From Thermoanaerobaculia bacterium (GTDB lineage Bacteria > Acidobacteriota > Thermoanaerobaculia > Gp7-AA8), in NCBI GenBank assembly GCA_035526885.1, contig DATLBM010000269.1, forward strand, positions 1 through 35,787: DNA of 35,787 nt, given 5' to 3'. This document shows positions 1,914 to 31,397 of the stretch, one piece after another. A program made the translations under genes and the position numbers. The notes beneath the pieces were generated by a model that did no database searches, was not told the DNA's origin, and was given only the letters and a program-made list of their open reading frames with translations. Every line of letters starts with the position of its first letter. The stretch's first letter is position 1.

Positions 1914-2597
1914 CTACCTCGTTCGGCCTGACCTGCCGATGATGACGCCAAGGATTTCGACCGGCAAATTCTGATCGTCCAGAGCGATCGGTTGGTAGCG
2001 AGGGTGCGCGCTCAACAGGTAACGCCCGTTGCTCTGGACGACGAGGCGTTTCACGAAAACGCCCTCTCCGATGCGACATACGATGAGTTTGCCGACCGGA
2101 GGGGCCTCCGAAGCGCTGACCGTGACCGCGTAAAGCATGTCGTCCGGCAGGATGCCTTCGCCGATCATGGATTCGCCGATTGCGTGAAGCAGCAGATCAG
2201 TGGCGTCTCCGAACGGCGTCTTGACCGGCCGGTCGGCGACCCGCTTATCACGCGTTGCGGCCAGCGCCGGGCGGGGAAGGATCCTCGCGTTCGGTTCAGA
2301 GAGAGCGTCCATCGTGGCAAGTTTGCGGTCAATCCAGCCACGGAATCGCGCGAGCTCGTCCGCGTCTTCCGGTGCGATCGCGAACGAAATGCCCAGGAGC
2401 GCGGCGATCGTCGTGCCGGTCACGCGCGCGATGCCCCGCAGGAGCTGCAGCTTCGGATTGTCCTCTTTGCCGGTGCGCAACCGGCTGATGGTGTTCTTGT
2501 TGACAGACAGAGTTTTCGCAATCTCCTGAGCCGTCTTCCCGCTTGCGCGGATGGCCGCGTCGATGCGTTCCCCGAGAGTCAACATCCCCGGTATCAT
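1914..2597 (-). CDS. XRE-family HTH transcriptional repressor with C-terminal S24 (LexA/CI-like) peptidase domain
   Basis: N-terminal HTH (GKTAQEIAKTLSVNKNTISRLRTGKEDNPKL). C-terminal beta-rich part is typical of the S24 fold (GDATDLLLHAIGESMIGEG...VKRLVVQSNGRYLLSAHP). AAGGAG lies upstream of the start; an alternative ATG is at 2585. Confidence 0.8.
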   Translation of the reverse strand: MIPGMLTLGERIDAAIRASGKTAQEIAKTLSVNKNTISRLRTGKEDNPKLQLLRGIARVTGTTIAALLGISFAIAPEDADELARFRGWIDRKLATMDALSEPNARILPRPALAATRDKRVADRPVKTPFGDATDLLLHAIGESMIGEGILPDDMLYAVTVSASEAPPVGKLIVCRIGEGVFVKRLVVQSNGRYLLSAHPRYQPIALDDQNLPVEILGVIIGRSGRTR

Positions 2598-2705
2598 GAC
2601 TCCTTTAGTTGTCTTTATTGGCCGGGAGATGCAGGACGTCTACACTGGCTGTGACAACTGCTTGAACATCGCCATTAGGGTAGATTGGCTGGCGGAGAGA
2701 CTGAG
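2598..2705. promoter_or_regulatory. divergent intergenic region between the repressor and ATPase genes, with a possible operator inverted repeat
   Basis: 108-bp gap, relatively AT-rich for this window. 7-bp inverted repeat AGTTGTC (2607-2613) / GACAACT (2653-2659). I could not place a convincing -35/-10 pair. Confidence 0.3.
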
Positions 2706-3968
2706 ATGCTGAAATCGCTGATGGTCCGGGCGGTGGGACCTGCGCCGGAGATGACGATCGATTTCGCGGAACGCATCAACGTCATCACAGGCGATAACGG
2801 CCTCGGCAAGAGTTTCCTGCTCGACGTGGCCTGGTGGGCGTTGACCCGGACATGGGCGGGGACGCCGGCTCTTCCGACCGACCCGTCCGAAGCGATGATC
2901 CGCTACGTCATCAAGGGGCGCAAAGGCTCCGCGGAACCGGTGACCTCGCGTTATCGGGCGGAAGAACAGGAGTGGCCGGGCGAGCCGAAACGCCCGGCGA
3001 TGCCGGGCGTCGTCGTCTACATGCGTGTCGACGGCGGATTTTCCGTCTGGGATCCGGCGCGCAACTACTGGCGGAAAGATCGATCCGACCGGCCGCCGGC
3101 GTATCACTTCGACCATCAGGAAGTCTGGGATGGACTCCGCATCAACGGCGTGAGTGTCTCGGAGGGACTGGAACGCGACTGGGTGAGCTGGCAGAAAGGG
3201 CGCGAGCCTCAGTTCCTCCTCCTCGAGCGCGTTCTGCAAAAGCTATCGCCGCCCGACGTGGCACTGACGCCCGGTCCACCGAAACGCGTATTTCTCGGCG
3301 AGGGCTTCGACCGGCCAACACTCCTGATCGGTGACGCGGTCGTCCCGGTCGCCATTGCGTCGGCAGGCATTCGGCGGATTCTCGCGCTCGCGTACCTGCT
3401 CGTGTGGGCGTGGCACGAACACCGTGTCGCGGCGGCCTTGCTCGGGACCGAGCCCGACACACGCATGGCACTGCTCATCGACGAACCGGAAACCCATCTT
3501 CACCCGGCATGGCAGCGGCGCGTCATCCCCGCGGTCGTGGAGGCCGTCCGCGTTCTGCATGAGGAGCACAAGTCGGCCACGCAGATCCTGATTGCGACGC
3601 ATTCGCCGCTCGTGCTCGCATCGCTGGAGCCGTTTTTCGACATCGACCGCGATGCGCTGTTCCACCTTCGCTTCGAAGCGGGCTACGCCGTCCTCGAGCC
3701 CGAGCCCTGGGCGAAGCAAGGCGACGCCAGTCAATGGCTGGTCTCGGACGTGTTCAATATGCGGCAAGCCCGCTCGGCGGAAGCGGAGCAAGCCATCGAG
3801 GCCGCGGAAGCCTTCATGCGGGAAGATCTGCACATGCTTCCCGAAGGATTGCGCACGCGCGAGCAGATCAATGCGAGGTTGAGGACTCTCCTCGCGCCCC
3901 ACGATCCGTTCTGGGCTCGATGGCTGACACGAACCGAGCCCGCGCTGCGCGTCTCGGCGCGAGCGTAG
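2706..3968 (+). CDS. ABC/SMC-like AAA ATPase (AAA_21-type), Septu PtuA-like
   Basis: Walker A GDNGLGKS, Walker B/D-loop LLIDEPETHLHP, H-loop IATHSPLV. ATG at 2706 is preceded by GGAGAG; the ORF track begins at TTG 2685. Confidence 0.8.
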   Translation: MLKSLMVRAVGPAPEMTIDFAERINVITGDNGLGKSFLLDVAWWALTRTWAGTPALPTDPSEAMIRYVIKGRKGSAEPVTSRYRAEEQEWPGEPKRPAMPGVVVYMRVDGGFSVWDPARNYWRKDRSDRPPAYHFDHQEVWDGLRINGVSVSEGLERDWVSWQKGREPQFLLLERVLQKLSPPDVALTPGPPKRVFLGEGFDRPTLLIGDAVVPVAIASAGIRRILALAYLLVWAWHEHRVAAALLGTEPDTRMALLIDEPETHLHPAWQRRVIPAVVEAVRVLHEEHKSATQILIATHSPLVLASLEPFFDIDRDALFHLRFEAGYAVLEPEPWAKQGDASQWLVSDVFNMRQARSAEAEQAIEAAEAFMREDLHMLPEGLRTREQINARLRTLLAPHDPFWARWLTRTEPALRVSARA

Positions 3969-4560: not shown

Positions 4561-5253
4561 TCACCTCCGCCCCCGCCCCCACACGGCCCTGCGCGTTCCG
4601 CCCACCGCGTCCGTGCGGAAGGGCGGGTAGTCGATCACTTCGACGGAGTCGAAGTGAGAGGCGAACATCTGCACGAAGACGTCGCGGTGGGGGGCGATGA
4701 GGTTTCCGTGGACGGTGCGGCAGCGTTGGTCCGTCCAGTCCCACACTATCGCGGTGAGCTCCGAGCCGCCGAGCTGGTTGCGGAGGGGGAGCTGCGTGAG
4801 CTCCGCCGGGTCGCACATGGGGACGAAGCACGATCCGCCGGGCTTCGTCCAGGCGGCCACGTTCGCGATCGTTTTGCGGATCGCCGGGACGCTGCCCGCG
4901 TAACAGTACGCCCACCACATCAGCGTCACGAGATCGAAACGCGCTTCCAGTTGCGGTTGCGGCTCGCGGAAGTCGGCTTCGAGGAAGGGGACGTCCGGAT
5001 TGTGTGAGCGGGCCACGTCCAGCATGGCGGGAGAGAGATCGAGGCCGCAGCGATCGACGTCCGGGAACTGGCTGAGGAACCAGCCCGTGCCGCACGCCGC
5101 ATCGAGCCACGAGCCGCCGGGTGGCATGTGCTCGCGCAGCCACGCCAGTTCGAATGCGGTGGCCTCCTCGTAATGCTCGCCGTGCAGGAACGCCTCGTCG
5201 TAGGTCTCCGCGTAGCGCGCGCTGTAAATGGCCAGGACTTCATCGCGCGTCAT
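4561..5253 (-). CDS. class I SAM-dependent methyltransferase
   Basis: Motif I LDAACGTGWF followed by GLDLSPAMLDVAR. Its ATG overlaps the upstream stop (ATGA at 5250-5253). Confidence 0.85.
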   Translation of the reverse strand: MTRDEVLAIYSARYAETYDEAFLHGEHYEEATAFELAWLREHMPPGGSWLDAACGTGWFLSQFPDVDRCGLDLSPAMLDVARSHNPDVPFLEADFREPQPQLEARFDLVTLMWWAYCYAGSVPAIRKTIANVAAWTKPGGSCFVPMCDPAELTQLPLRNQLGGSELTAIVWDWTDQRCRTVHGNLIAPHRDVFVQMFASHFDSVEVIDYPPFRTDAVGGTRRAVWGRGRR

Positions 5254-7775
5254 GCGAGCAGCTCCCGAAGCGATGCGGCCAGCGTTTGGACGGATGGCGG
5301 AGTGAGGAGATTGAAATGCGTCGCCTCGATGCGATGCACGTCCAGGCCCGGCGCGACGCCCGACCAGAGCGACGCGTTGCGCAGGTGATCGCTTTCACGG
5401 TCTTCCACGGTCCGCGTCGCCGCGAAGAGCGTTACGCGCGTGTTCGCGGGAGCGGGAACGTAGTGGCGCATGGTGCGGAAGTTCGCGCGAAGATTGCGGA
5501 GGAAGCGGCGCAGGTCGTGATAGCCGACGTCGTCCGCCGCGGGCATCAGGCGATAGAGGCGACAGAACTCCTGGACCGAGGAGAGACGTCGTTTCTCCTG
5601 CGGAATGTAGCGCCCCGTCAGCTCGATCAGCTCGCGCCACAGCGCGTGCTCGTGGGCCTCCTCGACCTGCGGCGAGTCGAGGTCATGGCGTTCCAGCACC
5701 TCGCCGAGGTCGACCACGGGGTTGCGATCCTCCGGGCCGTATGCGCGCGGGAACCGCGTGTCCAGCAGCGCCACGTGCGATGCCTCGTCGCCGAGCTGCT
5801 GCGCCATCTCGTACGCGATGAGGCCCCCGAACGAATAGCCGGCCAGAAGATACGGGCCGTGTGGATGCGCGGCGCGCAACGCGTCGATGTAGCGCGCGGC
5901 CATCTCCGGCGCGTGCTGCAGCGGCGCGTCGCTGCTGCGCGGGTCGGGACCTTTCAGTCCGACGACGGCGCGATCGGAGCCGAGAAGGCGCGCGAGCTCG
6001 ACGTAGCAGAGGATCGATCCGCCGGACGGATGGATGCAGACCAGCGGACGTCCGTTGCCGCGCTGGATCGTGACCAGCGGCGACGCATCGCGCGTGCGCG
6101 CGTGATGGCGGAGGAGGCGCGCAAGATGCTCGATCGTCGCGTCGGGCAGCAACGCCGAAGGCTCGAGCGCCACGCCGAATTCGGATTGCACGCGCGCGAG
6201 CAGGTCGACGGCCATGATGGAGTCGGCGCCGAGGGCGAAGAAGTCGTCCGTGACGCCGATTCCTTCGCGCTCGAGGAGCGTTTCCCAGATCCGCGCGAGC
6301 TGCAGCTCGACGGGATCGCGCGGTGTGACGAACGAGCGTTCCGGCGCCGGTTTGGCGACGCGAACGCGCGGCTCGCCGTCGATGCCGGTCTCCACGACCA
6401 CCGCCTGGCCGCGCTCGCGCTCGATCGCTTCGAGATCGACGAGCTCTCCGCCGATCCATGCGCGCCGATCCGTGCGGCCGCACAACTCGATGTTGCCGTC
6501 GTCGCGGACTCGGGCCAGGTCGCCCGTCTTCTCGCCGCGAATCACGAGCGCGCCGATCTCGCCCATCGCGCAGTCCTCGCCGTTCGCGGCGACGACGCGA
6601 ACGTCGACGCCGGTGAGCGGCCGTCCGATCGGTTGCGTCCCGGGCAGCGGCGGATCGGCGATGCGATACGCGCACGCGTCGAGGTACGTCGTGAACAGCG
6701 GCGCGTCGGACGGGAAGAAGTTGCGCCAGCGCGCGATGAGGCCGTCGGTGACCGGCTCGCCGGTGAAGACGACGGCGGAAACGCCGCTGAGTGGTTTCGG
6801 CCGCAGGGCGCGCGCGATGCGGCGGCGGGCTTCGTGCGCCGTGAGCGTGAGGCTGTTCGGCGGCGGCGTCATGGGCTCGAGGGCGGCGGACGTGGCGACG
6901 GGCTTCAGCCCGTCGCGATGTGGGTATTGCGACGGGCTGAAGCCCGTCGTCACGCTTGTCCCGATCAGCCGCTGCCATTCGTTGCGCAGCGCGCGGTCGT
7001 ACAGCCAGTTGCCGTCGAAGTGATTGCCCGCGACTTCGATCATCCGCTTCGGCTCGCGCGCGGCGTCGAACACGCGTCGCGCGAGCTGAATGGGCACGAG
7101 CCAGTCCTCGCGCGCGTGCACGACGATGACCGGACACCGCGCGTCCGCGACCGGTTTCGTCGAATCGAGCGGGATCGTGAGACGGCGGATCTTCGTGACC
7201 CACTTCGGCAGGTGGTGATCGCGCAGGTCGGTCATCGAGCTCGCGCATCCGTGAAACACGAGCGCGCGGCAGTCGACCTGCGTGGCCAGTCGCGCGGCGA
7301 TCGCGGCACCGAGCGAGCGGCCGTAGAGAATGATCGCGTCCGGCGCGATGCCTTTCGCGAGCAGCGCATCCCACGCCGCGCGCGCCGCCTCCTCGCATCC
7401 CTGCACCGTCGCCGTTCCCTCCGAAGTCCCGAAGCCGGGATAGTCGAACGCGAAAACGTTCGCGCCGAGGGACGAGACGTAGCGGATCGCTTCCAGCTCC
7501 TGGCTGACGTTCGCGGCACGGCCGGGGAACAGCAGCACCGTAACTTTCGCGTCGTCGTGCGGCACCCACCAGGCGCGGATCGAGTCGCGGCCCGCGCGGA
7601 GGCGGAGCTCGTCGAATGCCAGTCCCACGCGCGAAGGCGTGCCCCAGTCGCGGCGGCTTGGCCGGAGCACGAGGATGCGCTGGTTGAAGAGCGCGAGCGC
7701 GAAGAAGCGCGTGTTGCGGATCCAGGTTCGGTTCGAGCGCAGGAGCCGGCGCAGCGCGCGAAGGATGCGTCTCAC
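5250..7775 (-). CDS. single open frame joining an alpha/beta-hydrolase to a truncated adenylation-like region, a PCP and a thioesterase
   Basis: GTG 7775 overlaps the KS stop (GTGA). Hydrolase: GRSLG nucleophile, REDW, GNHFD. No in-frame stop crosses the palindromic repeat at 6890-6955. After the repeat come degenerate A5-A8-like motifs (TGDLARVRDDGNIELCGRTDRRAWIGGELVDLEAIE), PCP GADSIMAV and TE GYSFGG. An internal ATG at 6872 allows an alternative two-gene model. Confidence 0.7.
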   Translation of the reverse strand: MRRILRALRRLLRSNRTWIRNTRFFALALFNQRILVLRPSRRDWGTPSRVGLAFDELRLRAGRDSIRAWWVPHDDAKVTVLLFPGRAANVSQELEAIRYVSSLGANVFAFDYPGFGTSEGTATVQGCEEAARAAWDALLAKGIAPDAIILYGRSLGAAIAARLATQVDCRALVFHGCASSMTDLRDHHLPKWVTKIRRLTIPLDSTKPVADARCPVIVVHAREDWLVPIQLARRVFDAAREPKRMIEVAGNHFDGNWLYDRALRNEWQRLIGTSVTTGFSPSQYPHRDGLKPVATSAALEPMTPPPNSLTLTAHEARRRIARALRPKPLSGVSAVVFTGEPVTDGLIARWRNFFPSDAPLFTTYLDACAYRIADPPLPGTQPIGRPLTGVDVRVVAANGEDCAMGEIGALVIRGEKTGDLARVRDDGNIELCGRTDRRAWIGGELVDLEAIERERGQAVVVETGIDGEPRVRVAKPAPERSFVTPRDPVELQLARIWETLLEREGIGVTDDFFALGADSIMAVDLLARVQSEFGVALEPSALLPDATIEHLARLLRHHARTRDASPLVTIQRGNGRPLVCIHPSGGSILCYVELARLLGSDRAVVGLKGPDPRSSDAPLQHAPEMAARYIDALRAAHPHGPYLLAGYSFGGLIAYEMAQQLGDEASHVALLDTRFPRAYGPEDRNPVVDLGEVLERHDLDSPQVEEAHEHALWRELIELTGRYIPQEKRRLSSVQEFCRLYRLMPAADDVGYHDLRRFLRNLRANFRTMRHYVPAPANTRVTLFAATRTVEDRESDHLRNASLWSGVAPGLDVHRIEATHFNLLTPPSVQTLAASLRELLA
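6890..6955. repeat. palindromic GGGCTTCAGCCC-core element, copy 1 (REPIN/MITE-like), inside an ORF
   Basis: ACGTGGCGACGGGCTTCAGCCCGTCGC - 11-nt loop - GCGACGGGCTGAAGCCCGTCGTCACGC. Read in frame on the minus strand it gives TTGFSPSQYPHRDGLKPVATS. Confidence 0.85.
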
Positions 7776-10174
7776 GGTGCCGCCAGGACGATGGCGACGT
7801 TGCGCACCCCGCGGTCGCTGCGCCACACCAGCGCGTCGGGAATCTCGCCATCGCGAATGGCCAGCGCCGCGTGTGTGGCCGAGAACATGCCGGAGGCGGC
7901 GCCTGTGAATCCGATGGCATCGCATGCGCCTTCGATGCGGGCGTCATCGCCGACGACTTCGTGCGCGATGGAGGGCTCGGCGGCGTCGAGGAGATCGCCG
8001 AACACGTGACGGGGAGCGCGTCCGCTGGCACGAAGGGCAAGCCTGGCGGCATCGTGCAGCGACGCGAACGATTCGTGCGACGCTGCGATGCGCGCGTAGA
8101 TCCGCGCGCCGCGCTGCCGCGCGCGTTCTTCCGATTCCAGGATCCACACCACGGCGCCTTCGCCCGGCGCGACGGTCATGCCGTCGAGCACTTCCGCGGC
8201 GAGATGCTCAGGACCGAGGACCGAGTCGTATGCGCCGGCCATCACCACGTCCGTCTCACCGCGCTCGATCGCCCGCGCCGCGCGGACCAGTGCCTGCGCG
8301 CCGCCGCACGAGCCGCTGCTGATGTTGAGGTTGGGCCCGAGGACGCCGTGCTCGATGGCGATGCCGCACAGGCCGGCGTTCGGAAGACTCTTCACGATGA
8401 GCAGCGGATCGATGCGCGGGATGCCGCGCGTGGCGAACTTCGTCGGATCCCACTGGCCCGCGGCGTCGATCGACACTTCGAGCGCCGGCGCGAAGTTCGA
8501 CTGCGGCGAATCGAAGCTCACCGACGCGATGTAGAGGCCCATCCGCGCGAGCGTGTCCGCGTCGCCGTCGAGCCCCGCGTCACGCGTCGCTTCCCCTGCC
8601 GCGACGACGGCCATCGTGGCGGTCTTCTGCAGGAGTTTGCGAAGCATGCGATTGCGCACGGTCTGCGGCATCGACTCGTCGTACGCGGGCGCGCCGAACG
8701 GCGCGATGGTGCTGTTCGCGTCGCGGATCGTGATGCCGGACGCGCCTTCGCGATAGCGCGTCCAATGCTCGCGCGCGTTCGATGCGAGCGGGGAGACGAC
8801 GCCGATACCGGTGAGGACGGCTTTGTGAAACGTGGCGACGGGCTTCAGCCCGTCGCGATGTTGGATATCGCGACGGGCTGATGCCCGTGGCCACGTTTCT
8901 CCTTCGAATTTGCGGATGGCGATGGAGCCGTTCTGGCCGCCGAAGCCGAACGAGTTCGAGAGCGCCGTGCGGACGCGCATGCGCCGCGCTTCGACGGGCA
9001 CGAAATCGAGATCGCATTCGGGATCGCGTTTGCGCAGGTTGATCGTCGCGGGGACGACGTCGTCGCGCACGGTGAGGCACGTCAGCACCGTTTCCACGGC
9101 GCCCGCGGCGCAGATGAGATGTCCGAGGTGCGACTTGGTGGAGCTGATGGCGACGCGTTCGGCATGCGCGCCGAATGCGGACTTGATGGCGATCGTCTCG
9201 ATGCGATCGTTCTGCGGCGTGGCCGTACCGTGCGCGTTGATGGCGTCGACGTCGTGCGGCGCGATGCCCGCATCCTCGAGGCAGTTGCGCATCGCCGCCG
9301 CCGCCCCCCGCCCCTCGGGATGCACGTCCGTGAAGCGGTAGCCGTCGGACGACGATCCGTACCCGATCACTTCCGCGTAAATGCGCGCACCGCGTGCCAG
9401 CGCGTGCGGCAGCGATTCCAACACGACCATGCCCGCGCCTTCGCCGATGACGAAGCCGTTGCGGGTGAGATCGAACGGGCGCGAGCTCGTTTCCGGATCC
9501 GCGTGCGTGGAGAGCGCGCCGAGGAGCCAGAAGCCGGCCAGGCAGAACGCGGAGACCATGCTGTCCGCGGCGCCGGCGAGCATGACGTCGGCCAGGCCGG
9601 AGCGGATCATGTGAAAGGCCTCGCCGGTGGCCTGCGTGCCCGAGGTGCATGCGCCCTGGATCGTGAGACTGGGGCCGTCGAGCTGGAAGCGCTGGGAGAG
9701 AAAGGCGGAGATGGAGCTCAGGCGGTACTGCGTCGTGAGCTCGCGATGTTCGCGCAGCAGTTCGTAGAGACTCTCGACGCTCCAGCGCGCGGCGGGAGCG
9801 GCGACGTCCAGCGCGCGCCCGCGGATCTGCGTCTCGATGGCGGGAAAGCCTCCCGCGCCGACGCAGACGCCGATGCGTGCGCGATCCGCGCTGCCGTTCA
9901 TGCCGGAGTCGCTCCACGCTTTCGATGCCGCCCAGTTCGCGAAGGCCAGTGCGCGGTTCGCGCGCACGAGTCCGCGATCGTGATCGCTCGCGACGATGCG
10001 TTCGACGTCCACTTCGCTGGCGATGTTCACCGGGAAGGCGTGGCTGTCGTACTGCCGCAGGTGTCCGATGCCGCAACGTCCGTCGAGGATGGCGTTCCAG
10101 ACCGGCTCGACGTCGACACCGAGCGACGTTGCCAGGCCCAGACCCGTCACCACGACGCGCGCGCGGTCAGTCAT
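7772..10174 (-). CDS. fused beta-ketoacyl synthase (KS-alpha, FabF-like) and chain-length-factor-like KS-beta
   Basis: N-terminal domain has the full catalytic set: GACTSG, HGTATP, KSHLGH, NSFGFGGQNGS. C-terminal domain (KAVLTGIGVVSPLA...) keeps the KS fold signature but lacks the HGT and K..GH motifs. The two are joined in frame through the repeat at 8828-8898. Confidence 0.85.
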   Translation of the reverse strand: MTDRARVVVTGLGLATSLGVDVEPVWNAILDGRCGIGHLRQYDSHAFPVNIASEVDVERIVASDHDRGLVRANRALAFANWAASKAWSDSGMNGSADRARIGVCVGAGGFPAIETQIRGRALDVAAPAARWSVESLYELLREHRELTTQYRLSSISAFLSQRFQLDGPSLTIQGACTSGTQATGEAFHMIRSGLADVMLAGAADSMVSAFCLAGFWLLGALSTHADPETSSRPFDLTRNGFVIGEGAGMVVLESLPHALARGARIYAEVIGYGSSSDGYRFTDVHPEGRGAAAAMRNCLEDAGIAPHDVDAINAHGTATPQNDRIETIAIKSAFGAHAERVAISSTKSHLGHLICAAGAVETVLTCLTVRDDVVPATINLRKRDPECDLDFVPVEARRMRVRTALSNSFGFGGQNGSIAIRKFEGETWPRASARRDIQHRDGLKPVATFHKAVLTGIGVVSPLASNAREHWTRYREGASGITIRDANSTIAPFGAPAYDESMPQTVRNRMLRKLLQKTATMAVVAAGEATRDAGLDGDADTLARMGLYIASVSFDSPQSNFAPALEVSIDAAGQWDPTKFATRGIPRIDPLLIVKSLPNAGLCGIAIEHGVLGPNLNISSGSCGGAQALVRAARAIERGETDVVMAGAYDSVLGPEHLAAEVLDGMTVAPGEGAVVWILESEERARQRGARIYARIAASHESFASLHDAARLALRASGRAPRHVFGDLLDAAEPSIAHEVVGDDARIEGACDAIGFTGAASGMFSATHAALAIRDGEIPDALVWRSDRGVRNVAIVLAAP
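8828..8898. repeat. palindromic GGGCTTCAGCCC-core element, copy 2, inside an ORF
   Basis: AAACGTGGCGACGGGCTTCAGCCCGTCGC - loop - GCGACGGGCTGATGCCCGTGGCCACGTTT, 71 nt. Translated on the minus strand as ETWPRASARRDIQHRDGLKPVATF. Confidence 0.9.
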
Positions 10175-12287: not shown

Positions 12288-12775
12288 GCGCGGGCGGGGG
12301 GCTGCCATGGAGAGGTGAGACGGCGGTACTCCTCGCGGCAGAAGCTCTCCATGACGTTCCGGTCGCCGCCGCCCACCGCGCCGTTCGGATCGAAGAGGAG
12401 CATGAGGGTCATGTCCGCGGACTTGCGCCCGCCATTCGTGACCGTGGCCTTGCACAGCGCGGCTTCGTCGCGGAGTGAATCGATCCGCGTGCGGATCTCC
12501 AGGCGGCTCTTCGGAGCGACGAATTCGCGGAACTTGGCGCCCTCGATCTGTCCGAGAAAGGGAAAGACCCACAGGTCGCGATTGGCCACGAGCGTGGCCT
12601 GCACGAGAAGGCCGGAGAGCTGCGCGCCCATCTCGGTCAGCAGCACGCCGGGCGTGATGGGAAAGGTCGGGAAGTGATCGGCAAACAGCTCCTCGGAGAA
12701 GTCCGTGGACGCGTCCGCGGACGCAGACTCTCCGGGCACGAGCTCGCGAACTCTCTCCAGAAGGCGCCATCGCAT
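12284..12775 (-). CDS. FabZ/FabA-like hotdog-fold 3-hydroxyacyl-ACP dehydratase
   Basis: [22 protein letters not shown] matches the FabZ active-site region (DHFP..P.mPGVL). 163 aa; first gene of the operon. Confidence 0.8.
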
Positions 12776-12812
12776 GAGTAGGATTGGAAGACGCTCTTAC
12801 GATACATCAAGA

Positions 12813-14150
12813 ATGCCTTCCTTCGACACGATCATCGCCGGCGGCGGACTGGCCGGAATCACGACTGCGGTCGCGCTCGCGGACGCGGGGCAGCGCGTGG
12901 CTCTGCTCGAAGCCTCGCCGATTCTCGGTGGCCGCGCCTCGAGCACGATCGACGCGACGACGGGCGATGCGATCGCCATCGGCCCGCACGTGCTTTTTTC
13001 CGAATACGTGAACATGCTGAAGCTCCTGCGGCTCCTCGGCACGGACTCGAAGATCGTCTGGGACGACGAGCGCTTCACGACCGAGGTGAAGGGCACGCAC
13101 GAGATCGTGATGCGGATCTCTTCATGGCTGCCGGCGCCTTTTCACTTCGTGCCCAGTCTCTTTCGGGACAGGACGCTGCGCGCCGCGGACTGGCTGTCCA
13201 ACGCGGGCATCACGCTGTACGCGCTGTCGCTGCGCGAGGCGGATCTGCTGCGGCTCGATGGCATGCGCGGCATCGACCTCGTGCGCCGCTTTCGCGTGCG
13301 GGAGGCCTACGTCGAACGCTTCTGGCGCTACCTCGCGCTGGCGATCGTGAACGTGCCGCTCGAGGAGTGCTCGGCGGCCGCGCTGCTGCGCGCGTACCGG
13401 CGGCTGATCGGCAAACGCGGGTATCGCATCGGCTATCCCGGCGGAGGCCTCGGCGATCTCTTCGCGCCGGCGGCGGAGCGGTTTCTGCGCGAGCGCGGCT
13501 CGGTCGTGCTGACGAACGCACGCGTCGTATCTCTGGATGGGCCATTTCGATTGCAGACCGGCGAGACGTTCGAAGGAAAGTCGTACGTCATCGCGCTGCC
13601 TCCGCCGAAGCTGGAGGCCGTGCCGTACGCGAGCGTGTATCTCTGGTTCGACCGGAAGCTCACACAACGGCGTTTCTGGTCGCGCGTGTATGCGGAGGGC
13701 GATCTCAATCTCGACTTCTACGACTTTTCGAACATCGGAAGCCGCGGCGGCACGTCGCTGATCGGGAGCAACGTCATCGGCGCGGAGCGCATCGGATCGC
13801 TTTCCGATGAGGAGATCGTGAAGCGCACGCTGGAGGAGATCGCGGAGTATCTCCCGCACGCGCGCGATGCGCGCGTCGTGCACTCGGTGGTGCATCGCAT
13901 TCCGATGGCCATTCACGCGGCGGTGCCGGGATCGGAGTCGCGTCGTGCCCGCGAGCTCGAGCCGCGTCCCGGCGTCGTGCTGGCCGGCGACTGGACGCAG
14001 ACGGGACTGCCGCCATCGATGGAGAGCGCGTGCTTTTCCGGATTTCGCGCGGCGGAGATCGTCCTCGGCCGCGACGGCCTGGCGGTGCGGCATCGGGAGC
14101 TGGATTGGGTCGCTTCGCTCCTCGGCGCGCTGACGCGCCGGACGGGCTGA
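12813..14150 (+). CDS. FAD-dependent oxidoreductase of the phytoene-desaturase / amine-oxidase (HpnE-like) family
   Basis: N-terminal dinucleotide fold DTIIAGGGLAGITTAVALADAGQRVALLEASPILGGRA; C-terminal LAGDWT motif. The last codons and the TGA stop lie inside the repeat at 14141-14203. Confidence 0.8.
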   Translation: MPSFDTIIAGGGLAGITTAVALADAGQRVALLEASPILGGRASSTIDATTGDAIAIGPHVLFSEYVNMLKLLRLLGTDSKIVWDDERFTTEVKGTHEIVMRISSWLPAPFHFVPSLFRDRTLRAADWLSNAGITLYALSLREADLLRLDGMRGIDLVRRFRVREAYVERFWRYLALAIVNVPLEECSAAALLRAYRRLIGKRGYRIGYPGGGLGDLFAPAAERFLRERGSVVLTNARVVSLDGPFRLQTGETFEGKSYVIALPPPKLEAVPYASVYLWFDRKLTQRRFWSRVYAEGDLNLDFYDFSNIGSRGGTSLIGSNVIGAERIGSLSDEEIVKRTLEEIAEYLPHARDARVVHSVVHRIPMAIHAAVPGSESRRARELEPRPGVVLAGDWTQTGLPPSMESACFSGFRAAEIVLGRDGLAVRHRELDWVASLLGALTRRTG

Positions 14151-14203
14151 AGCCCATCCTACGTTCGGCACGGTGCTCAACGTAGGATGGGCTTCAGCCC
14201 GTC
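14141..14203. repeat. palindromic GGGCTGAAGCCC-core element, copy 3 (variant with arms in inverted order)
   Basis: GACGGGCTGAAGCCCATCCTACGTT - 13-nt loop - AACGTAGGATGGGCTTCAGCCCGTC. It overlaps the stop codon of the upstream gene (14148-14150). Confidence 0.85.
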
Positions 14204-14227
14204 CCGCCGCTGCGCTAAGCTGCGCGC

Positions 14228-15205
14228 GTGATCGAGGCGCCGCGGGTCCAGTCGGTGCGATTCATCGGATCCGCGCATGCCGGGAGCGGCGCGGGATGGA
14301 CGCTGCACGGGCAGGACGGCGGACAGTCCATCGCCCTCGGCGGCGAAACGTTGTTCGTCTTCTCCGATACGCTGCTGTCGCGCAGTGGTCAGCAGCTCTT
14401 CCTTGCGAACTGCGCGGCGTTGTCGGGCGAACCGACGCTGGACGGCGCAATGTCCAACCTTCGCTACCTCGAAGACGAGCACGGACTGCCGCGCGAGATC
14501 CTCGGCGCGAACCCGCTCGAGCGCATGGCCGGGTTTCGTTTCTGGCCGCAGCACGGAATCGCCGAGGGTGATGACGTCCTGCTCTTCTACCTCGGCATTC
14601 ACCAATACGATCAGCGCAGCGCGTGGGGCTTTCGGATGTCCGGCTCCGGGATGGCGCGCCTCGATCCGCGCACAGGCGCGAGCGAGCGCATCACGCGGGC
14701 GGGCGTGTGGTGCCTGTGGCCCGGCGACGGCGACGTGCGCATCGGGACGCAGGTGCTCCGCGCGGATGCTTTCGTGTACGTCTTCGGCAGCCGCGCGTCG
14801 CACGCGATCGTCGCGCGCGTGCCGTCATCATCGGTCGGCGATCCCGATGCGTACCGGTTTCTCGCGGCGGATGAACGGTGGTCGGAAAGCGTGAGCGATG
14901 CGGTCTCGATCGCCAAAGCGGCGCCGGAGTTCTCCGTGTCGTTCAACGAACATCTCGGCGCGTACCTGATGGTCTACGCGGACGGATTCGCGCGCGAGCT
15001 CTACGTGCGCACGGCGCCCGCTGTTTGCGGTCCGTACGGACCGGCGGTGGCGGTGGGACGTCTGCCGCATCGCGACTCGGCGGAGATGGTGGCGCTGGCG
15101 TTCGAGCATCCGCGGTTCGCGAAGAACGGCGGCAAGACGGTGGTCGTCTCCTACTGCCAGCCGCACTTTACGCAGAACTCTCTCGTGGCAGTCACGTTCG
15201 CGTGA
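14228..15205 (+). CDS. hypothetical protein, possibly DUF4185-like (beta-propeller, glycoside-hydrolase-like)
   Basis: High GC3 and GTG start. LGGETLFVFSDTLL resembles the conserved FGDT-type motif of DUF4185. This assignment is tentative. Confidence 0.55.
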   Translation: MIEAPRVQSVRFIGSAHAGSGAGWTLHGQDGGQSIALGGETLFVFSDTLLSRSGQQLFLANCAALSGEPTLDGAMSNLRYLEDEHGLPREILGANPLERMAGFRFWPQHGIAEGDDVLLFYLGIHQYDQRSAWGFRMSGSGMARLDPRTGASERITRAGVWCLWPGDGDVRIGTQVLRADAFVYVFGSRASHAIVARVPSSSVGDPDAYRFLAADERWSESVSDAVSIAKAAPEFSVSFNEHLGAYLMVYADGFARELYVRTAPAVCGPYGPAVAVGRLPHRDSAEMVALAFEHPRFAKNGGKTVVVSYCQPHFTQNSLVAVTFA

Positions 15206-15283
15206 AGGCAAACGTGGCGACGGGCTTCAGCCCGTCGCAATATCGATATCGCGACGGGCTGAAGCCCGTCTCCACGTTTCTTC
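15206..15283. mobile_element. palindromic GGGCTTCAGCCC-core element, copy 4, flanked by a 14-bp direct duplication
   Basis: AAACGTGGCGACGGGCTTCAGCCCGTCGC-AATATCGATAT-GCGACGGGCTGAAGCCCGTCTCCACGTTT. It is flanked by identical TCACGTTCGCGTGA at 15192-15205 and 15284-15297. Confidence 0.6.
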
Positions 15284-16291
15284 TCACGTTCGCGTGATCT
15301 CGCGAATGAGCTCGTCCCATCGCGCGGCGATGTTGGACCAGGCATACCGCGGATCGGTCGCGCGCGCAAACGCGGCGTCGGCCAGACGGCCACGTTCGTC
15401 GCGATCGCGGTAGAGGCGCTCCAGCGCCGCGGCGATGCCTTCCACGGTGACCGTGCGTCCCGCCTTCGTGTAGCGCTCCATCGTGCTCTGCGTTGCGGGA
15501 TCGAGCAGCAACGCCGCGCCTTCCCAGAGCTCGGCGCACGCAGTGTGGTTCGGCACGATCTGCGCGGCACGCGTGGCGCCGTGCTCGAAGGCGATCAGGC
15601 CCCAGCCTTCCTTCTCCGACGTGTTGATGCCCACGTGGCAGGAGTTGTAGATCGCGTTCAGGCGCTCGTCGGAAACGAACGGATGCCGCTCGCCCTTTTC
15701 CGTGAAGACGATGCGGTCGCGGATGCCGAAGCGATCCGCCAGCGGGACCTCGCCCGGATGCGGCGTGCGCGTGCCCATGTGCAGCACGAGCTTCACGTTC
15801 TCCGGCTTGCCGCGCGCGAACAGGGCGAAGCCTTCGACGGTGAGGTCGATGCGTTTGAACGGCTGATTGCGATTGGCGTTGAGGACGAAAAAGGCGTCGT
15901 CGTCGCGCGTGCCGGCGGGGTGGAAGGCATTCGTGTCGACGCCGTGCGGAATGACAGCGTGTGCGTTGGCGATCGCGCGGCCGAAATCCGTGAATGCCAC
16001 CACGCGGTCCGCCTTGGCCAGCTCCGCCGCGATCTCCGGCGTCACCGACTCTTCGCCGTCGGCGGCAGCGTAGAAGATGGTCGGGTACGTGCCGCACAAC
16101 CGCGGTGCGAGTTGCGCGCAGCGCCACGGCTCGTCCAGTACGAGCACGAGCTCCGGCGCGATGGCGGCGATGTCCGCGTCCGATGCATCGATGGGGAGGC
16201 GCGCCACGCGGCGGGGAAGATGCGGGGCGATGCTGTCGAGCACGCGGGCGAATCCCGTGGGAATGCCCGCGTGCCCGAGGAAGAGGATCAC
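15284..16291 (-). CDS. GT-B fold glycosyltransferase (GT4-like)
   Basis: EKEGWGLIAFEHGATRAAQIV (E-x7-E region) and VILFLGHAGIPTGFARVL at the N-terminus. GTG 16291 overlaps the stop of the 304-aa gene (GTGA). The upstream part of the 481-aa ORF is a shadow. Confidence 0.8.
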   Translation of the reverse strand: MILFLGHAGIPTGFARVLDSIAPHLPRRVARLPIDASDADIAAIAPELVLVLDEPWRCAQLAPRLCGTYPTIFYAAADGEESVTPEIAAELAKADRVVAFTDFGRAIANAHAVIPHGVDTNAFHPAGTRDDDAFFVLNANRNQPFKRIDLTVEGFALFARGKPENVKLVLHMGTRTPHPGEVPLADRFGIRDRIVFTEKGERHPFVSDERLNAIYNSCHVGINTSEKEGWGLIAFEHGATRAAQIVPNHTACAELWEGAALLLDPATQSTMERYTKAGRTVTVEGIAAALERLYRDRDERGRLADAAFARATDPRYAWSNIAARWDELIREITRT

Positions 16292-22313: not shown

Positions 22314-23278
22314 GGCCGCGCGTCATCGTCGCTCAGAATTTCGAATGCTGCGCGATGGCGTGTGACCAGCGTTCGCGCCGGTTCGCCTTTGCGAACGATC
22401 GAAAATTGTGCGCTGGCGAGCTTCGTGTTCAGACAGATTTTTTCGCCGCCCGGCGGATTTTGATACCGCAGTCCGACGAACGCGCTCATCGGCGCCTCGA
22501 TCCGGCCCGATACGCGGACGTCCCGCGTTCGCGCTTCGATCGTCCAGGCGAAGGAGCGAACCTCGGCCGCCGTGCGCAGCGCCCGAAACAGTCCGTTGAG
22601 CGCGATCTCACGGCCCTGATCGCGCAACACCAGAAAGGTCAGCCGCGGGCTCCACACCGGACCGATCCTGATCTGTGCGGTCGCACATTCGAGAAACGAC
22701 TCGGGAGCGTTGTCAAAGCCGGCCACCTGCCCCCACGCGTATCGATCGGTGTGCTGGGTGCCCCAGTTGTGATTCTGGCTGCCTCTCCACTCCTGCACCG
22801 GCACGCTCACTCCGTCGATCACGAGGCTGCCCGTGTATCGAGCGTCTGGTGCGCCAACCAAAACCTTCGCCTTGGGAAAGCGTTTCGAATAGAGCTCCGC
22901 CGGCAGCAGGAGCAAGGGAGGCTCGGCGCTTTCATAGCGCAAGGCCCACTCGAACGTGTGCGACGGCGATGCAGCGCGACCGTGAAGCTCGCCGTCCCGC
23001 AGAACGGCGTCCCGGATGCGAACATCGAGCCGCAACGGCGAGAAATGACATTCGGCGATCGGCAGCGCTTCCTGGACAGCCACGATCTCGCCGCGCTCAC
23101 CATCGAAATAGATCGCCCAGAGCTCGCCGCGGGCCAGGTCCGGACGTTGCCGTGGCGAGAAGACCGTGTAGCGAATCCAGAATGCCAGGGGACGCGAAGG
23201 ATGGTTGGCGCGCTGGAAGTAGCTCTCGTAAAAGCCGGCAGCATCTTCGGGTCGAAACCTCGACGCATTCCAGTCCAC
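22274..23278 (-). CDS. hypothetical protein, tocopherol-cyclase-like / CrtC-like fold suspected
   Basis: Only the C-terminal 334 aa of the 1176-aa ORF look coding; GTG at 23278. FYESYFQRANHP..RPLAFWIRYTVF and WRGSQNHNWG...RYAWGQV resemble the FEGWYFR and EKNWG motifs of tocopherol cyclases. It overlaps the 3' end of the convergent synthase gene by 40 bp. Confidence 0.5.
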   Translation of the reverse strand: MDWNASRFRPEDAAGFYESYFQRANHPSRPLAFWIRYTVFSPRQRPDLARGELWAIYFDGERGEIVAVQEALPIAECHFSPLRLDVRIRDAVLRDGELHGRAASPSHTFEWALRYESAEPPLLLLPAELYSKRFPKAKVLVGAPDARYTGSLVIDGVSVPVQEWRGSQNHNWGTQHTDRYAWGQVAGFDNAPESFLECATAQIRIGPVWSPRLTFLVLRDQGREIALNGLFRALRTAAEVRSFAWTIEARTRDVRVSGRIEAPMSAFVGLRYQNPPGGEKICLNTKLASAQFSIVRKGEPARTLVTRHRAAFEILSDDDARPHASGDRNPRSMM

Positions 23279-23289
23279 GTTGGGTTGAC

Positions 23290-25014
23290 CTACGTCAGGC
23301 GCGCGAGCATCGCCAGCTCGCCGGACTCGTCGCCGCCCAGCGATCGGAAAAGCGTCGTCCACTTCTGGCGCAGCGCGCCCTGCAGCGGCGGCATGCGCAT
23401 GCGCGCGGGATTCGGGAATCCCGCCTCGCGCAGCGCGCGCGTGAGCGAGCGCTCGTTGAAGAACTGGTAATGCGCGACGGGATTCACCGCGTCCCACTCC
23501 TTGCCGAAGATCCGGAACTGCCACGACTCGCTGTCCGGCACGGCCAGGTACAGAACGCCGCCGGGGTTGAGCGCCTGCGCGATCTGGCGCAGCGCGGCGT
23601 TCGGATCGCCGAGGTGCTCGAGGACGTGCGTCATGACGATGGCGTCGAACGAGCCCCAGGGCAGGAGGTCGCTGCCGAGATGCGCCACGGCCAGATGCGA
23701 GCCGAACATCGCGTCCAGCTCCGCCGTGCGCGCGCGCGAGGTCTCCACGCCGTACACCTGGAAGCCGTGCGCGCGCGCGGTGCGCAGCAGGTACCCGGAG
23801 CCGTAGCCGATGTCGAGCAGCCGCGGTCCGGGCGCGTGCTTGCGCAGCAGGCGGCACAGATAGTCCGCATAGATTTTCTGCGTCTGCAGAAATCCATCCT
23901 CGGACGCATCGAGCTCCTCGCCGAGGCGCTTCTGCACTTCCGGCTTCACGCGCGGGCTCACGTAGATGTGCGCGCACGTCGCGCAGCGGTGGTAGTCGAA
24001 GCGGTGCTTGCGGAAGATGGTGGCGTCGTTGCGCGCGCCGCATACGGGGCAGTCGACGGTCTCGAATGCGTCGTCGCCGAGGCGATCGCGAAAGTCGTTC
24101 GAGTTGGAGTGCCAGAAGAGATGCAGCGCCTCGGCCGGATCGGGAAGCGGTGCGGGAGTGAAGAGGCTTTCGATCTCCGCCTTCGTTTCGTCGAGCTTGG
24201 CCAGCGCGATGGCGCGGGCGGAGTCGTCGAGCGCGTCCGCCATCTCCTGCAGCGCGGCGACGTCTTTGCCGATGACGGAGCGGACGTCGTCGCCGAAGAT
24301 CGCGGCGATGTTCGGCCGCGACTGCTCGGCATCGCGCTCGCGGTCCTGCAGGTCGTTCACCTTCTGCGCGAGCGCGTAGTAGCGGCGCAGGAACGGATAG
24401 AGCGGCGACTGCAATTCGGGATCGAGAGCGGCGTAGAGGATGCGCCAGTACTCGACGTTCTTCAGCTCCACGAGCCGCTCGTAAAACTCGGGCGACCAGT
24501 CCTCGCGCGGGCTGCGCTCCATGAGGATGCCGGCCAGGAGAGCGCGTGCGGCATCGATGATCGCGGCCGTCTGCGCGCCGGCGCGCGCGTGCTGCAAGCC
24601 CTCGAAGCAGAGCAGGAGGGCCATCACGACGGTGAGCGATTCCGCCTCCGGCCCGCCGCCCTCGCGCGCCAGCGTGGCCAGCAGCGTCTCGCGGCGGCCG
24701 CGGTAGAGGAAGTGGCGATCGAGGTAATCGTCGAGCAGGCGGCCGGCGAAGTAGATCAACACGCTGGCCGAGAGATCGGCGCGAAAGCGCTCCTCGTCGG
24801 GCTGGATGACGACGGCGAGCTGCGGCAGGTCCCAGGTAGTCCAGCTCAGCCAGTGCAGGTAGTCCGCGGTCTTGTCCGCGAGGGCTCGCGTGGAAGGGTT
24901 GCCGCCGGACACGAGGTCGATGTTGCGGCGCATGCGCTCGATGGCGTCGACGACCGCGCCCGTAACGATGGCGCGATAGCGCTCCTCGATGGTCTCGGCG
25001 GCGGTGACGGTCAT
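23290..25014 (-). CDS. two-domain protein: N-terminal all-helical isoprenoid-synthase-like domain fused to a zinc-ribbon plus class I SAM methyltransferase
   Basis: ATG 25014 overlaps the upstream stop (ATGA). N-terminal RLLDDYLD (DDxxD) and VNDLQDRERD (NSE/DTE-like). Then CPVCG...CATC, LLDIGYGSGYL (motif I) and LNPGGVLYLAVPD. Confidence 0.7.
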   Translation of the reverse strand: MTVTAAETIEERYRAIVTGAVVDAIERMRRNIDLVSGGNPSTRALADKTADYLHWLSWTTWDLPQLAVVIQPDEERFRADLSASVLIYFAGRLLDDYLDRHFLYRGRRETLLATLAREGGGPEAESLTVVMALLLCFEGLQHARAGAQTAAIIDAARALLAGILMERSPREDWSPEFYERLVELKNVEYWRILYAALDPELQSPLYPFLRRYYALAQKVNDLQDRERDAEQSRPNIAAIFGDDVRSVIGKDVAALQEMADALDDSARAIALAKLDETKAEIESLFTPAPLPDPAEALHLFWHSNSNDFRDRLGDDAFETVDCPVCGARNDATIFRKHRFDYHRCATCAHIYVSPRVKPEVQKRLGEELDASEDGFLQTQKIYADYLCRLLRKHAPGPRLLDIGYGSGYLLRTARAHGFQVYGVETSRARTAELDAMFGSHLAVAHLGSDLLPWGSFDAIVMTHVLEHLGDPNAALRQIAQALNPGGVLYLAVPDSESWQFRIFGKEWDAVNPVAHYQFFNERSLTRALREAGFPNPARMRMPPLQGALRQKWTTLFRSLGGDESGELAMLARLT

Positions 25015-27340: not shown

Positions 27341-27960
27341 GCGTGGATCCCGGTCATGCCGCCGAGGAGCCAGCGGCCGTCGTGCTGCTGCCGGAACCAG
27401 AGCATGCGGCCGAACAGCTCGGTGAGCGTGCGCATGTGCGGCTTGCTGAAGAAGTCGACCTGCACGGTGACGCGAATCAACACGCCCATCGGATGGAAAA
27501 CGACGTCGGGAATCTCGGTGAGTGAGACGCGGAACTGCTCGCCGCGCCAGCCGTCGATGGAGCCTTCCAGCGCGCTGCGAAGGCGGTCGCGATCGACCTC
27601 GACGTCATCCTCGAACGCGTGATAGTCCGGCGCGATGCACTCCATCACCTCGGCGATGTCGCCGCGCTCGATGGCCTGGATGAACCGATAGAGGCAGTCC
27701 ACCACTTCCTCGGCGGTCTCCGCATCCCACGGCTCGGGTGCGGCTGACGTAGGACGGGCTTCAGCCCGTCCAGCGGGTGGACCGGCTGAAGCCTGTCCTA
27801 CGTCGAAGTAGCGATCCCAGGCCTGGCGCGCGACGTCCGGCGTGGCCTGCATCTCCTCGCCCGGCGCCCACGACACGAGCAGGTCGGTCGCGCTGAGCAG
27901 CCACGGGTGCAGATCGAATTCGTCCGCGGCGGGAGCCTGCCACTCGAAGTCGTCGGTCAT
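27337..27960 (-). CDS. NTF2/SnoaL-like small protein with an N-terminal extension and an in-frame repeat insertion
   Basis: C-terminal VVDCLYRFIQAIERGDIAEVMECIAPDYH... is typical of the SnoaL/NTF2 fold. N-terminal MTDDFEW... has high GC3. The repeat at 27746-27804 is read as VGQASAGPPAGRAEARPTS. Confidence 0.55.
   Translation of the reverse strand: MTDDFEWQAPAADEFDLHPWLLSATDLLVSWAPGEEMQATPDVARQAWDRYFDVGQASAGPPAGRAEARPTSAAPEPWDAETAEEVVDCLYRFIQAIERGDIAEVMECIAPDYHAFEDDVEVDRDRLRSALEGSIDGWRGEQFRVSLTEIPDVVFHPMGVLIRVTVQVDFFSKPHMRTLTELFGRMLWFRQQHDGRWLLGGMTGIHA
27746..27804. repeat. palindromic GGGCTTCAGCCC-core element, copy 5 (ACGTAGG subfamily), inside an ORF
   Basis: GACGTAGGACGGGCTTCAGCCCGTCC-AGCGGGT-GGACCGGCTGAAGCCTGTCCTACGTC. 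Confidence 0.85.
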
Positions 27961-28948
27961 GGGAGGAGGACGCGGCGAGTGTAGCATCACGGACCTGCGC
28001 ATCCTCGTGCTCACCGCCGACTTTCCTCCCGCGCACTGGTCGGGGATCGGCATCGCCGTCTTTCATCAGACCAACGCCCTGCGCGAGCGGGGCGTGGAGG
28101 TGGAAGTGCTGACGCGCGAGCGCCTCGAAGGCGTGCATTTTCCGCTCGAGGTCCGCCGTGGCGACATCGTGCATCTCCACTCCCTCGCGCTGGCCGAGCT
28201 GGCGCTCGAGCTCACGCGCCGCTTCGAGCTGCCGCTCGTCTACACCGCGCATTCGCTGATCGAGCGCGAGCTCGGCGAGCGTGCGGCGTCATGGGCTGCG
28301 TTGCAGCAACGCGTGTTCGAGGCGGCGGACGCGGTGATCTTCGTCAGTCGCGCGGAGCGCGAGGCCGCGCCGAACGTCCAGCGCGCGCACGTGGTGCACA
28401 ACGGTGTCAAACGTAGGGCGGACTTCAGCCCGCCCAGCGACGGGCTGAAGCCCGCCCTGCGTTTTTGTCCGGCCGGCCCGATCGTCTTCGCCGGCCGCTT
28501 CACGCGCAACAAAGGACTGGACATCGTTCTCGATCTGGCCGAATCCATCCCTCGCGAATTCGTGCTCGCGGGCGGGCACGGCGATCCCGATCTCGAGCGC
28601 CGCGCCGCATCGCGCTCGATGGGATGGCTGCCGCACGACGAGCTGCACGCGCTCTTCGCGCGCGCCGCGCTCGTGCTCATGCCCAGCCGCTACGAGCCGT
28701 TCGGGATGGTCGCGCTGGAAGCGATGCGCGCGGGCGCGCCGCTCCTGGCCTCGGAGGCGCTGCGCGAAGTGGCCATGCCCGAGTCGATCGTGCGCGGCGA
28801 CTGGCGCGATGCGGTGACGCAATTGCTCGCGCAACCGGAAACGCTGCGCGAGTTGCACGAACGCGGTCCGCGGCACGTGGCCGAGCATTTCGACGCGAGC
28901 GTGCTGGCGGAAAAGCTGTTGGCGATTCTGGAGAGCGTCGCGCGATGA
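27959..28948 (+). CDS. GT4-family glycosyltransferase with a repeat-encoded interdomain linker
   Basis: LRILVLTADFPPAHWSGIGIAVFHQTNALRERGVEVEVLT at the N-terminus; VVHNGV...FAGRFTRNKG; PSRYEPFGMVALEAMRAGAPLL (E-x7-E). Confidence 0.8.
   Translation: MGGGRGECSITDLRILVLTADFPPAHWSGIGIAVFHQTNALRERGVEVEVLTRERLEGVHFPLEVRRGDIVHLHSLALAELALELTRRFELPLVYTAHSLIERELGERAASWAALQQRVFEAADAVIFVSRAEREAAPNVQRAHVVHNGVKRRADFSPPSDGLKPALRFCPAGPIVFAGRFTRNKGLDIVLDLAESIPREFVLAGGHGDPDLERRAASRSMGWLPHDELHALFARAALVLMPSRYEPFGMVALEAMRAGAPLLASEALREVAMPESIVRGDWRDAVTQLLAQPETLRELHERGPRHVAEHFDASVLAEKLLAILESVAR
28409..28464. repeat. palindromic GGCTTCAGCC-core element, copy 6 (ACGTAGG subfamily), inside an ORF
   Basis: AAACGTAGGGCGGACTTCAGCCCGCC-CAGC-GACGGGCTGAAGCCCGCCCTGCGTTT. 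Read on the plus strand as KRRADFSPPSDGLKPALRF. Confidence 0.85.
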
Positions 28949-31290: not shown

Positions 31291-31397
31291 ACACGTGCGG
31301 CTGCCGAAAGCCGCGTTCAGTGCGACAGGCGTGCGTCCGGGCTGGGCCAACCAGCGCTGCCGGCCGTGCCGGCCCGCCGGAGGCGCTCCCCGTCGTC
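31240..31397. repeat. large near-perfect inverted repeat (about 44-bp arms, 69-nt spacer) between convergent genes
   Basis: Left arm 31240-31283 is GACGACGAGAGCGCCTCCGGCGGGCCGGCACGGCCGGCAGCGCT. Right arm 31353-31397 is its reverse complement: 36 contiguous identical nt, then one indel. The spacer holds a small GCGGCT/AGCCGC hairpin. Confidence 0.8.

Follow-up and report, generated by a model that had tools for sequence, protein, structure and literature searches.

Repetitive extragenic palindromic (REP) elements and their doublets, REPINs, are mobilised by RAYT (TnpA_REP) proteins, which are Y1 HUH enzymes (PMC3116915, PMC2817692, PMC8266576, PMC3733652), and the mechanism of their spread is described as unresolved (PMC8266576, PMC3116915). 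The IS200/IS605-type Y1 transposases to which RAYTs are related produce no target duplications of the sort dealt with here (PMC2817692), and the expectation in an earlier note on the present DNA, that RAYT mobilisation of a REPIN would leave none, agrees with that literature. The case in point is a REPIN-like doublet of 78 nt at positions 15206-15283 of contig DATLBM010000269.1 (GenBank assembly GCA_035526885.1), a 35,787-nt stretch of a Thermoanaerobaculia metagenome-assembled genome (MAG) that was analysed at its full length and is termed the window below. The doublet stands between the 3′ ends of two converging genes, one for a DUF4185 protein and the other for a glycosyltransferase-like (GT-like) protein, and is bordered on both sides by the same 14 bp, which in most relatives are present once, as an overlap of the two genes. 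For REPs and REPINs, a cleanly resolved filled site with its empty counterpart is seldom available. This locus is an unambiguous insertion at base-pair resolution, and its 14-bp footprint is not one that the single-strand RAYT model, as it now stands, would predict. A search of the open-access literature found no description of a REPIN insertion accompanied by a long target duplication.

On its sequence features, namely a hairpin unit, a GTAG-type foot and an inverted doublet, all of which were found in the window family, the element belongs to the REP/REPIN kind, here in a Thermoanaerobaculia MAG. As in described REPs, each unit is a GC-rich hairpin that follows a GTAG-type tetranucleotide (GTAG in units of type B, GTGG in those of type A). 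PMC8266576 describes guide function in vitro for GTGG variants of the head, and PMC3686654 lists heads of the form GTrG. Also as in described REPINs, the inverted doublets fold as one long hairpin (all six family loci in the window are doublets), local density is high, and copies lie near or over stop codons, with some within open reading frames (ORFs). The differences are that the copy at 15206-15283 has a validated 14-bp target duplication whereas the IS200/IS605-like single-strand model predicts none, that there is no RAYT in the window, that three of the six copies (A1, A2 and B3 in the table) are inside ORFs, and that the host is a member of the Acidobacteriota.

Other described systems share some of these properties. 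Bacterial miniature inverted-repeat transposable elements (MITEs) that duplicate their target, e.g. Chunjie with its 9-bp direct repeats (PMC3184786), likewise consist of a short non-coding palindromic insert with a direct repeat of target sequence and a very stable RNA fold. In a MITE family the duplication is expected to be present, with a constant length, at the majority of copies, whereas in the window family just one copy of six has a duplication, the ends are REP heads and no partner insertion sequence (IS) is known. With the mycobacterial interspersed repetitive units (MIRUs; PMC3184786), filled and empty sites differ, as here, by the element together with a short direct repeat, and the element overlaps at its ends with the gene on either side, both ORFs remaining intact. 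Their direct repeats are of 4 nt in contrast to 14 nt, and the genes flanking them are those of one operon rather than converging ones, but MIRUs are the closest precedent for an element that enters a gene boundary and spares both of the genes adjacent to it. Rickettsia palindromic elements and intragenic REPs (PMC3733652) are in-frame palindromic repeats in gene linkers, and in that respect resemble the intragenic copies in the window, unlike the intergenic copy of main concern.

The duplicated gene ends and their empty sites

The 14-mer, TCACGTTCGCGTGA, has exact matches at only two places, both of which directly border the doublet, as found by reading the sequence and by a pattern search of the whole window, in which the second-best match has 2 mismatches. 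The same geometry was placed at random 20,000 times with the site itself allowed, and the longest exact flank-to-flank repeat was 14 nt in 2 of these placements; when the site was excluded the best score in ~5,000 placements was 11, versus 14 at 15206-15283. Chance does not produce a flank-to-flank direct repeat of such length. The perfect 14-bp direct duplication around a 78-nt palindromic element that was described in the earlier note is accordingly there at both coordinates, and its assignment of the two copies holds as well. The left copy is the ...V T F A TGA end of the plus-strand gene, with which the translation of the gene end agrees. The right copy is the stop and ...I T R T of the minus-strand gene, where ...LIREITRT* is read, with the stop at 15284-15286.

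The 14-mer also forms a small palindrome of its own (TCACG-TTCG-CGTGA, a perfect 5-bp stem with a 4-nt loop), because of which its two copies lengthen the stem of the element. TTCG is at the center of both copies, and so the repeat is direct and there is no inverted extension of the palindrome. Growth of the hairpin by strand switching, a candidate that was considered, would instead yield an inverted copy (TCACGCGAACGTGA) and was rejected on that ground. The two bases after the 14-mer, TC, repeat its first two (2 nt microhomology). In the units of the doublet a head, ACGTGG, is followed by the hairpin, GACGGGCTTCAGCCCGTC. The doublet and its flanks form a single long hairpin, with a folding energy of -87 kcal/mol for RNA (z = -11.6) and of -53 kcal/mol for DNA. 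A simple terminator scan did not call the element, and there were no hits in Rfam and tRNA scans.

As to the two genes, the DUF4185 protein is 100% identical to P0001, a protein of an NCBI MAG labelled Thermoanaerobaculia bacterium. The closest of the other homologues are at most 83% identical to it, and the C-terminal residues are TFA or TFR in all 12 closest homologues, with ...TFA in 11 of these. The GT4 label of the minus-strand gene is a candidate assignment, from Pfam hits below threshold. A 481-aa ORF running to 16729 was considered for this gene and set aside as an over-extension, orthology giving the limits listed in the table.

Coordinates of the inserted doublet, the genes that it separates and the other family copies in the window
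Feature	Position	Strand	Remarks
DUF4185 gene, 325 aa	14228..15205	+	PF13810, E = 3.5e-19; ends ...AVTFA*
Left 14-bp copy	15192..15205	+	last codons and TGA stop of DUF4185 gene (...V T F A *)
Inserted REP doublet (REPIN-like), 78 nt, a multiple of 3	15206..15283		two inverted units, GTGG-type heads outwards, 11-12 nt spacer
Left REP unit	15210..15241	+	AAACGTGG-CGACGGGC-TTCA-GCCCGTCG-CAAT
Right REP unit, inverted	15248..15279	-	one stem-flank mismatch relative to the left unit
Right 14-bp copy	15284..15297	+	read on the minus strand: last codons and stop of GT-like gene (...I T R T *)
GT-like gene, 335 aa	15284..16291	-	start by orthology, at GTGA overlap with its upstream gene; 72% identical to 345-aa L016 orthologue
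Family copy A1	6885..6957		no flanking duplication; in frame in fused 891-aa ORF, deletion junction
Family copy A2	8825..8897		no flanking duplication; in frame, linker of 800-aa ketoacyl-synthase ORF
Family copy B1, GTAG heads inwards	14137..14207		no flanking duplication; hairpin loop gives amine-oxidase TGA stop
Family copy B2, GTAG heads outwards	27737..27806		no flanking duplication
Family copy B3	28401..28463		no flanking duplication; inside GT4 ORF 27842-28948, between its two Pfam domains

For comparison, the regions around eleven DUF4185 homologues were used, and the REP hairpin was looked for in 22 related loci. In eight loci from six Acidobacteriota lineages (L013, L014/L015, L016/L017, L018, L021 and L022) the two genes have an exact 14-bp tail-to-tail overlap and the 14-mer is present once. 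This is the ancestral state that the earlier note had reconstructed by removal of the element and one copy, and the empty site with a single 14-mer that it proposed should be sought in relatives is up to 13/14 identical to the window sequence (TCACGTTCGCATGA in L016, L017, L018 and L022). In L002, L020 and the P0003 contig the site is otherwise the same, with a change of TCA to TGA and growth of the overlap to 38 bp. This longer overlap is at 97-134 in L002 and 10977-11014 in L020, and there the GT-like gene reads 8 codons further; the occurrence of such read-on in three lineages means that the GT-like C-terminus tolerates extension. In BLAST alignments of the window with its relatives, the breaks fall at 15205/15284, and the alignments on either side share 14 nt of the subject. 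None of the 22 related loci, with all orthologous junctions among them, contains the window REP hairpin, and a tandem 14-bp duplication that lacks the element was found in none of ten lineages. Relatives from a metagenome scan were only 46-51% identical, too distant to serve as empty sites.

Because of the empty sites in relatives, and of the absence of the REP family from the 22 related loci, the element was inserted in the lineage of the window. There the 14-bp overlap is ancestral, the REP family expanded, and the doublet at 15206-15283 was inserted with a 14-bp target duplication. Loss in all other lineages is far less parsimonious than one insertion. The consequence is that the two genes are uncoupled, being now set apart by a very stable bidirectional hairpin with both of the stops in its base. 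Since 14-bp direct repeats flank a hairpin, the insertion is potentially reversible by slippage.

The repeat family within the window

The 18-nt hairpin GACGGGC-TTCA-GCCCGTC has 22 hits in the window, versus 0.14 expected, and the family loci comprise six doublets within 35.8 kb, from which 12 units were aligned. Type B heads are ACGTAG in five of six units and ACGCAG in the other, and those of type A are CGTGG in five of six and CGTGA in one. The flanks of the other copies had been named beforehand as a place where the case put in the earlier note might fail. Flank repeats at the other five doublets have scores of 3-6, which is chance level (null median 4-5), in contrast to 14 at 15206-15283, and none of the five is above chance. 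The arms of these copies show 91-97% conservation, as high as in the copy with the duplication. The duplication is thus not a family signature and looks specific to this site. Of the proposal in the earlier note that it is evidence for a mobile family, what stands is that the doublet was inserted here with a target duplication; what finds no support is the duplication as the transposition signature of the family.

Comparison with orthologous sequence also gives a picture for other copies that is unlike a clean insertion with a repeat, there being a linker swap at A2, a deletion at A1 and a swap of gene ends at B1. The A2 copy (ORF 7772-10174, minus strand) encodes ...ETWPRASARRDIQHRDGLKPVATFH... 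and stands in place of a variable linker, the L014 and L016 versions of which are ~26 nt shorter. At A1 (ORF 5250-7925, minus strand), ~400 nt of L016 are missing at the junction, and the copy fuses in frame an alpha/beta-hydrolase gene and a truncated AMP-binding/PP-binding/thioesterase gene, whose L016 counterparts are two genes with a 7 bp overlap. B1 replaces the 3′ end of an amine-oxidase gene (12705-14150), the stop being supplied by the REP hairpin loop (GC-TGAA-GC); relatives have a different amine-oxidase C-terminus at this position, and L016 carries a different hairpin there. B3 is at approximately amino acids 186-207 of a well-supported GT4 ORF (plus strand), between Glyco_transf_4 and Glycos_transf_1, with one frame open through it. 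Among the 24 window ORFs scanned by Pfam, no Y1_Tnp/RAYT and no other transposase was found. Two scans of a viral collection with the REP hairpin gave no match, and use of REPIN-encoded peptides as queries for further family copies gave no candidate.

Origin of the duplication

The reading favored here, and considered probable, is that of a single insertion event whose duplication was particular to that event and was kept because no other geometry saves both C-termini. In the ancestor, as in most living relatives, the DUF4185 and GT-like genes shared 14 bp at their converging 3′ ends (TCA...TGA). A GTAG/GTGG-headed REP family spread in the lineage of the MAG, and one 78-nt doublet entered the overlap with an exact duplication of these 14 bases, on the favored reading as one event. 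The duplication would be a by-product of the resolution of this insertion rather than the regular footprint of the enzyme that mobilises the family. It could have come about through fill-in at a staggered double-strand break, or through template switching in replication, by which the last 14 nt were copied again. Survival would then have depended on the duplication being of the whole overlap, as only this leaves both native C-termini, with at least one protein otherwise being extended, truncated or interrupted. Simulation is pertinent in this regard. With a 78-nt insertion and no duplication at each of the 15 overlap positions, at least one protein C-terminus was altered every time, whether by gain of 17-34 REP-encoded residues, by loss of residues or by a 26-aa in-frame insert beside the C-terminus. 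That a duplication is visible at this site is, on the favored reading, because only an insertion that duplicates the overlap keeps both native ends.

Two other junctions lend support, the first being a parallel with a duplication of another length and the second a non-overlapping junction with no duplication. In L019, a related Thermoanaerobaculia MAG (GCA_035705715.1; DUF4185 protein 69% identical), an unrelated and independent insert, a PIN and MazE toxin-antitoxin cassette, occupies the orthologous junction (8343-9068). The insert, of ~726 nt, is exactly between imperfect 29-nt direct repeats, CTCGCTCGTGGCGATCACGTTTGCGTGAA and CTCGCTCGTCGCGATCACCGTCGCCTGAA, with 24/29 matching, and this pair is the top repeat in the junction region. 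The right repeat holds, in fixed register, 14 nt of DUF4185 3′ coding sequence that are 13/14 identical to the left copy. At the GT end these 14 nt are non-coding, and so are a relic of duplication rather than something kept by selection. No terminal inverted repeats were found at the ends of the insert. A second L019 cassette (HTH/MqsA-like, 6570-7195), at the amine oxidase-DUF4185 junction, has only a chance-level 18-nt match. Toxin-antitoxin-type cassettes in L019 occupy two junctions that hold REP doublets in the window. The other relevant junction is in the window itself, at 22326-23290 (minus strand), where a ~1-kb gene (338-aa ORF, no Pfam hit) lies between polyprenyl synthase and methyltransferase genes. 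This gene is absent from L016 and L002, the converging junction of the relatives there has a spacer and no overlap, and no flanking duplication was found at the insertion.

Several considerations weigh against the favored reading. The duplication corresponds exactly to the overlap and also exactly to the perfect TCACG-N4-CGTGA mini-palindrome; under a process of variable length this is a coincidence, and the L019 duplication reaches 14 nt further. The L019 repeat is imperfect, with a free local alignment score of 16.5 that is below the null 99th percentile (19), and the significance of that duplication comes from its fixed position and its contiguity with the empty-site alignment. Since the GT-like protein of L002 has 8 additional C-terminal residues, this C-terminus is more tolerant than that of DUF4185 and is not strongly constrained, and selection on that side may be weak. 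The six family copies examined are all in the window, and the family may have a second, less frequent way of inserting in which the target is duplicated. The molecular process behind the duplication, with fill-in and template switch as the candidates, is inferred only.

The exact match to the palindrome is what gives interest to symmetric cleavage, which is nonetheless unlikely. Here the enzyme of the family, either a dimeric RAYT-type HUH nuclease or another integrase, would have cut both strands just 5′ of TCACG and joined the doublet at both cuts, with the 14-nt 5′ overhangs then filled to give a duplication equal in length to the palindrome. In keeping with this, the duplicated sequence is the sole occurrence in the window of a perfect hairpin with a 5-bp stem and 4-nt loop (0.11 expected), a perfect 5/5 stem is confined to the window and the L019 left copy with 2-4/5 pairs in all eight empty sites, element and target are both two-fold symmetric, and some REP dimers of other bacteria are reported within short palindromic targets (PMC3733652). 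However, two converging TGA stops automatically yield three of the five stem pairs, the other five copies have neither such a palindrome nor a duplication, the 29-nt L019 duplication is asymmetric about the palindrome, and the scanned ORFs include no RAYT. Known RAYTs, moreover, use single-stranded DNA and cut CT, CA or CC (PMC8266576), from which the junction dinucleotides here differ. There is just a slight chance that the REP family is able to enter duplex DNA through a pair of symmetric cuts, one at each border of a small palindromic target, with a duplication of palindrome length (14 bp). If it were so, a REPIN/RAYT-type system, or a partner integrase not yet known, would perform staggered integration in the manner of a DDE transposase or casposase, and mobilisation would not be confined to single-strand ‘peel and paste’. 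IS1202-group elements leave long duplications, as do casposases (14-15 bp), and a non-autonomous doublet moved as a classical MITE by a transposase with a stagger of ~14 bp would account for the clean insert, its sharp borders, the exact 14-bp direct repeat and the composition of the entire element as an inverted repeat. It would need the flanking repeats of the other copies to have been lost, and this account is very unlikely. Five of six copies lack any trace of a repeat, though with arms as well conserved as theirs a 14-bp repeat should remain recognisable. In addition, the unit ends are a REP GTAG/GTGG head plus hairpin and not IS-type terminal repeats, and the ORF scan found no transposase.

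A history in two steps calls for no unusual insertion chemistry. A 14-bp tandem duplication, for which the 2 nt of microhomology (TC) were available for slippage, would first have uncoupled the genes, and a duplication-free insertion of the REP doublet would have followed at the joint of the copies. That joint is the only neutral position, and selection would explain the exact placement. Two rare events are required, though, the intermediate is absent from all ten lineages, and the L019 cassette is exactly at the repeat joint despite 14 nt of neutral spacer, a ~1-in-15 outcome that favors a single event; this history is decidedly improbable. An ancestral filled state with precise loss by slippage in the relatives, or else an artefact of assembly, would dispense with an insertion altogether. 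Direct repeats that flank a hairpin are prone to precise deletion, with regeneration of the exact empty site, and the window is a metagenome-assembled contig. Against the former, many independent losses would be required, and every relative would also have had to lose the entire REP family. Against the latter, conserved syntenic genes continue beyond both flanks and each copy keeps the reading frame correct for its gene. Either is exceedingly improbable.

Returning to the single event with its incidental duplication, the window and L019 cases illustrate a general rule, open to testing across genomes: an insertion in a tail-to-tail overlap is seen only if the overlap has been duplicated. In practice, a flanking duplication at such an overlap argues only weakly for one transposition chemistry or another. 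The REPIN insertion itself is a single case.

Further features of the window

The window has two additional features. A perfect 36-nt inverted repeat (31248-31283 and 31353-31388, 100% complementary, with a 69-nt spacer) is unrelated to the REP family, and its first arm lies within the last codons of an AMP-binding gene that ends at 31290. The region at 1914-3968, of lower G+C (~0.64), has a minus-strand gene of the HTH and S24 peptidase (LexA/CI-like) type, from which a gene for an AAA_21/AAA_15 ATPase diverges, and may be the remnant of a defence system or mobile element.

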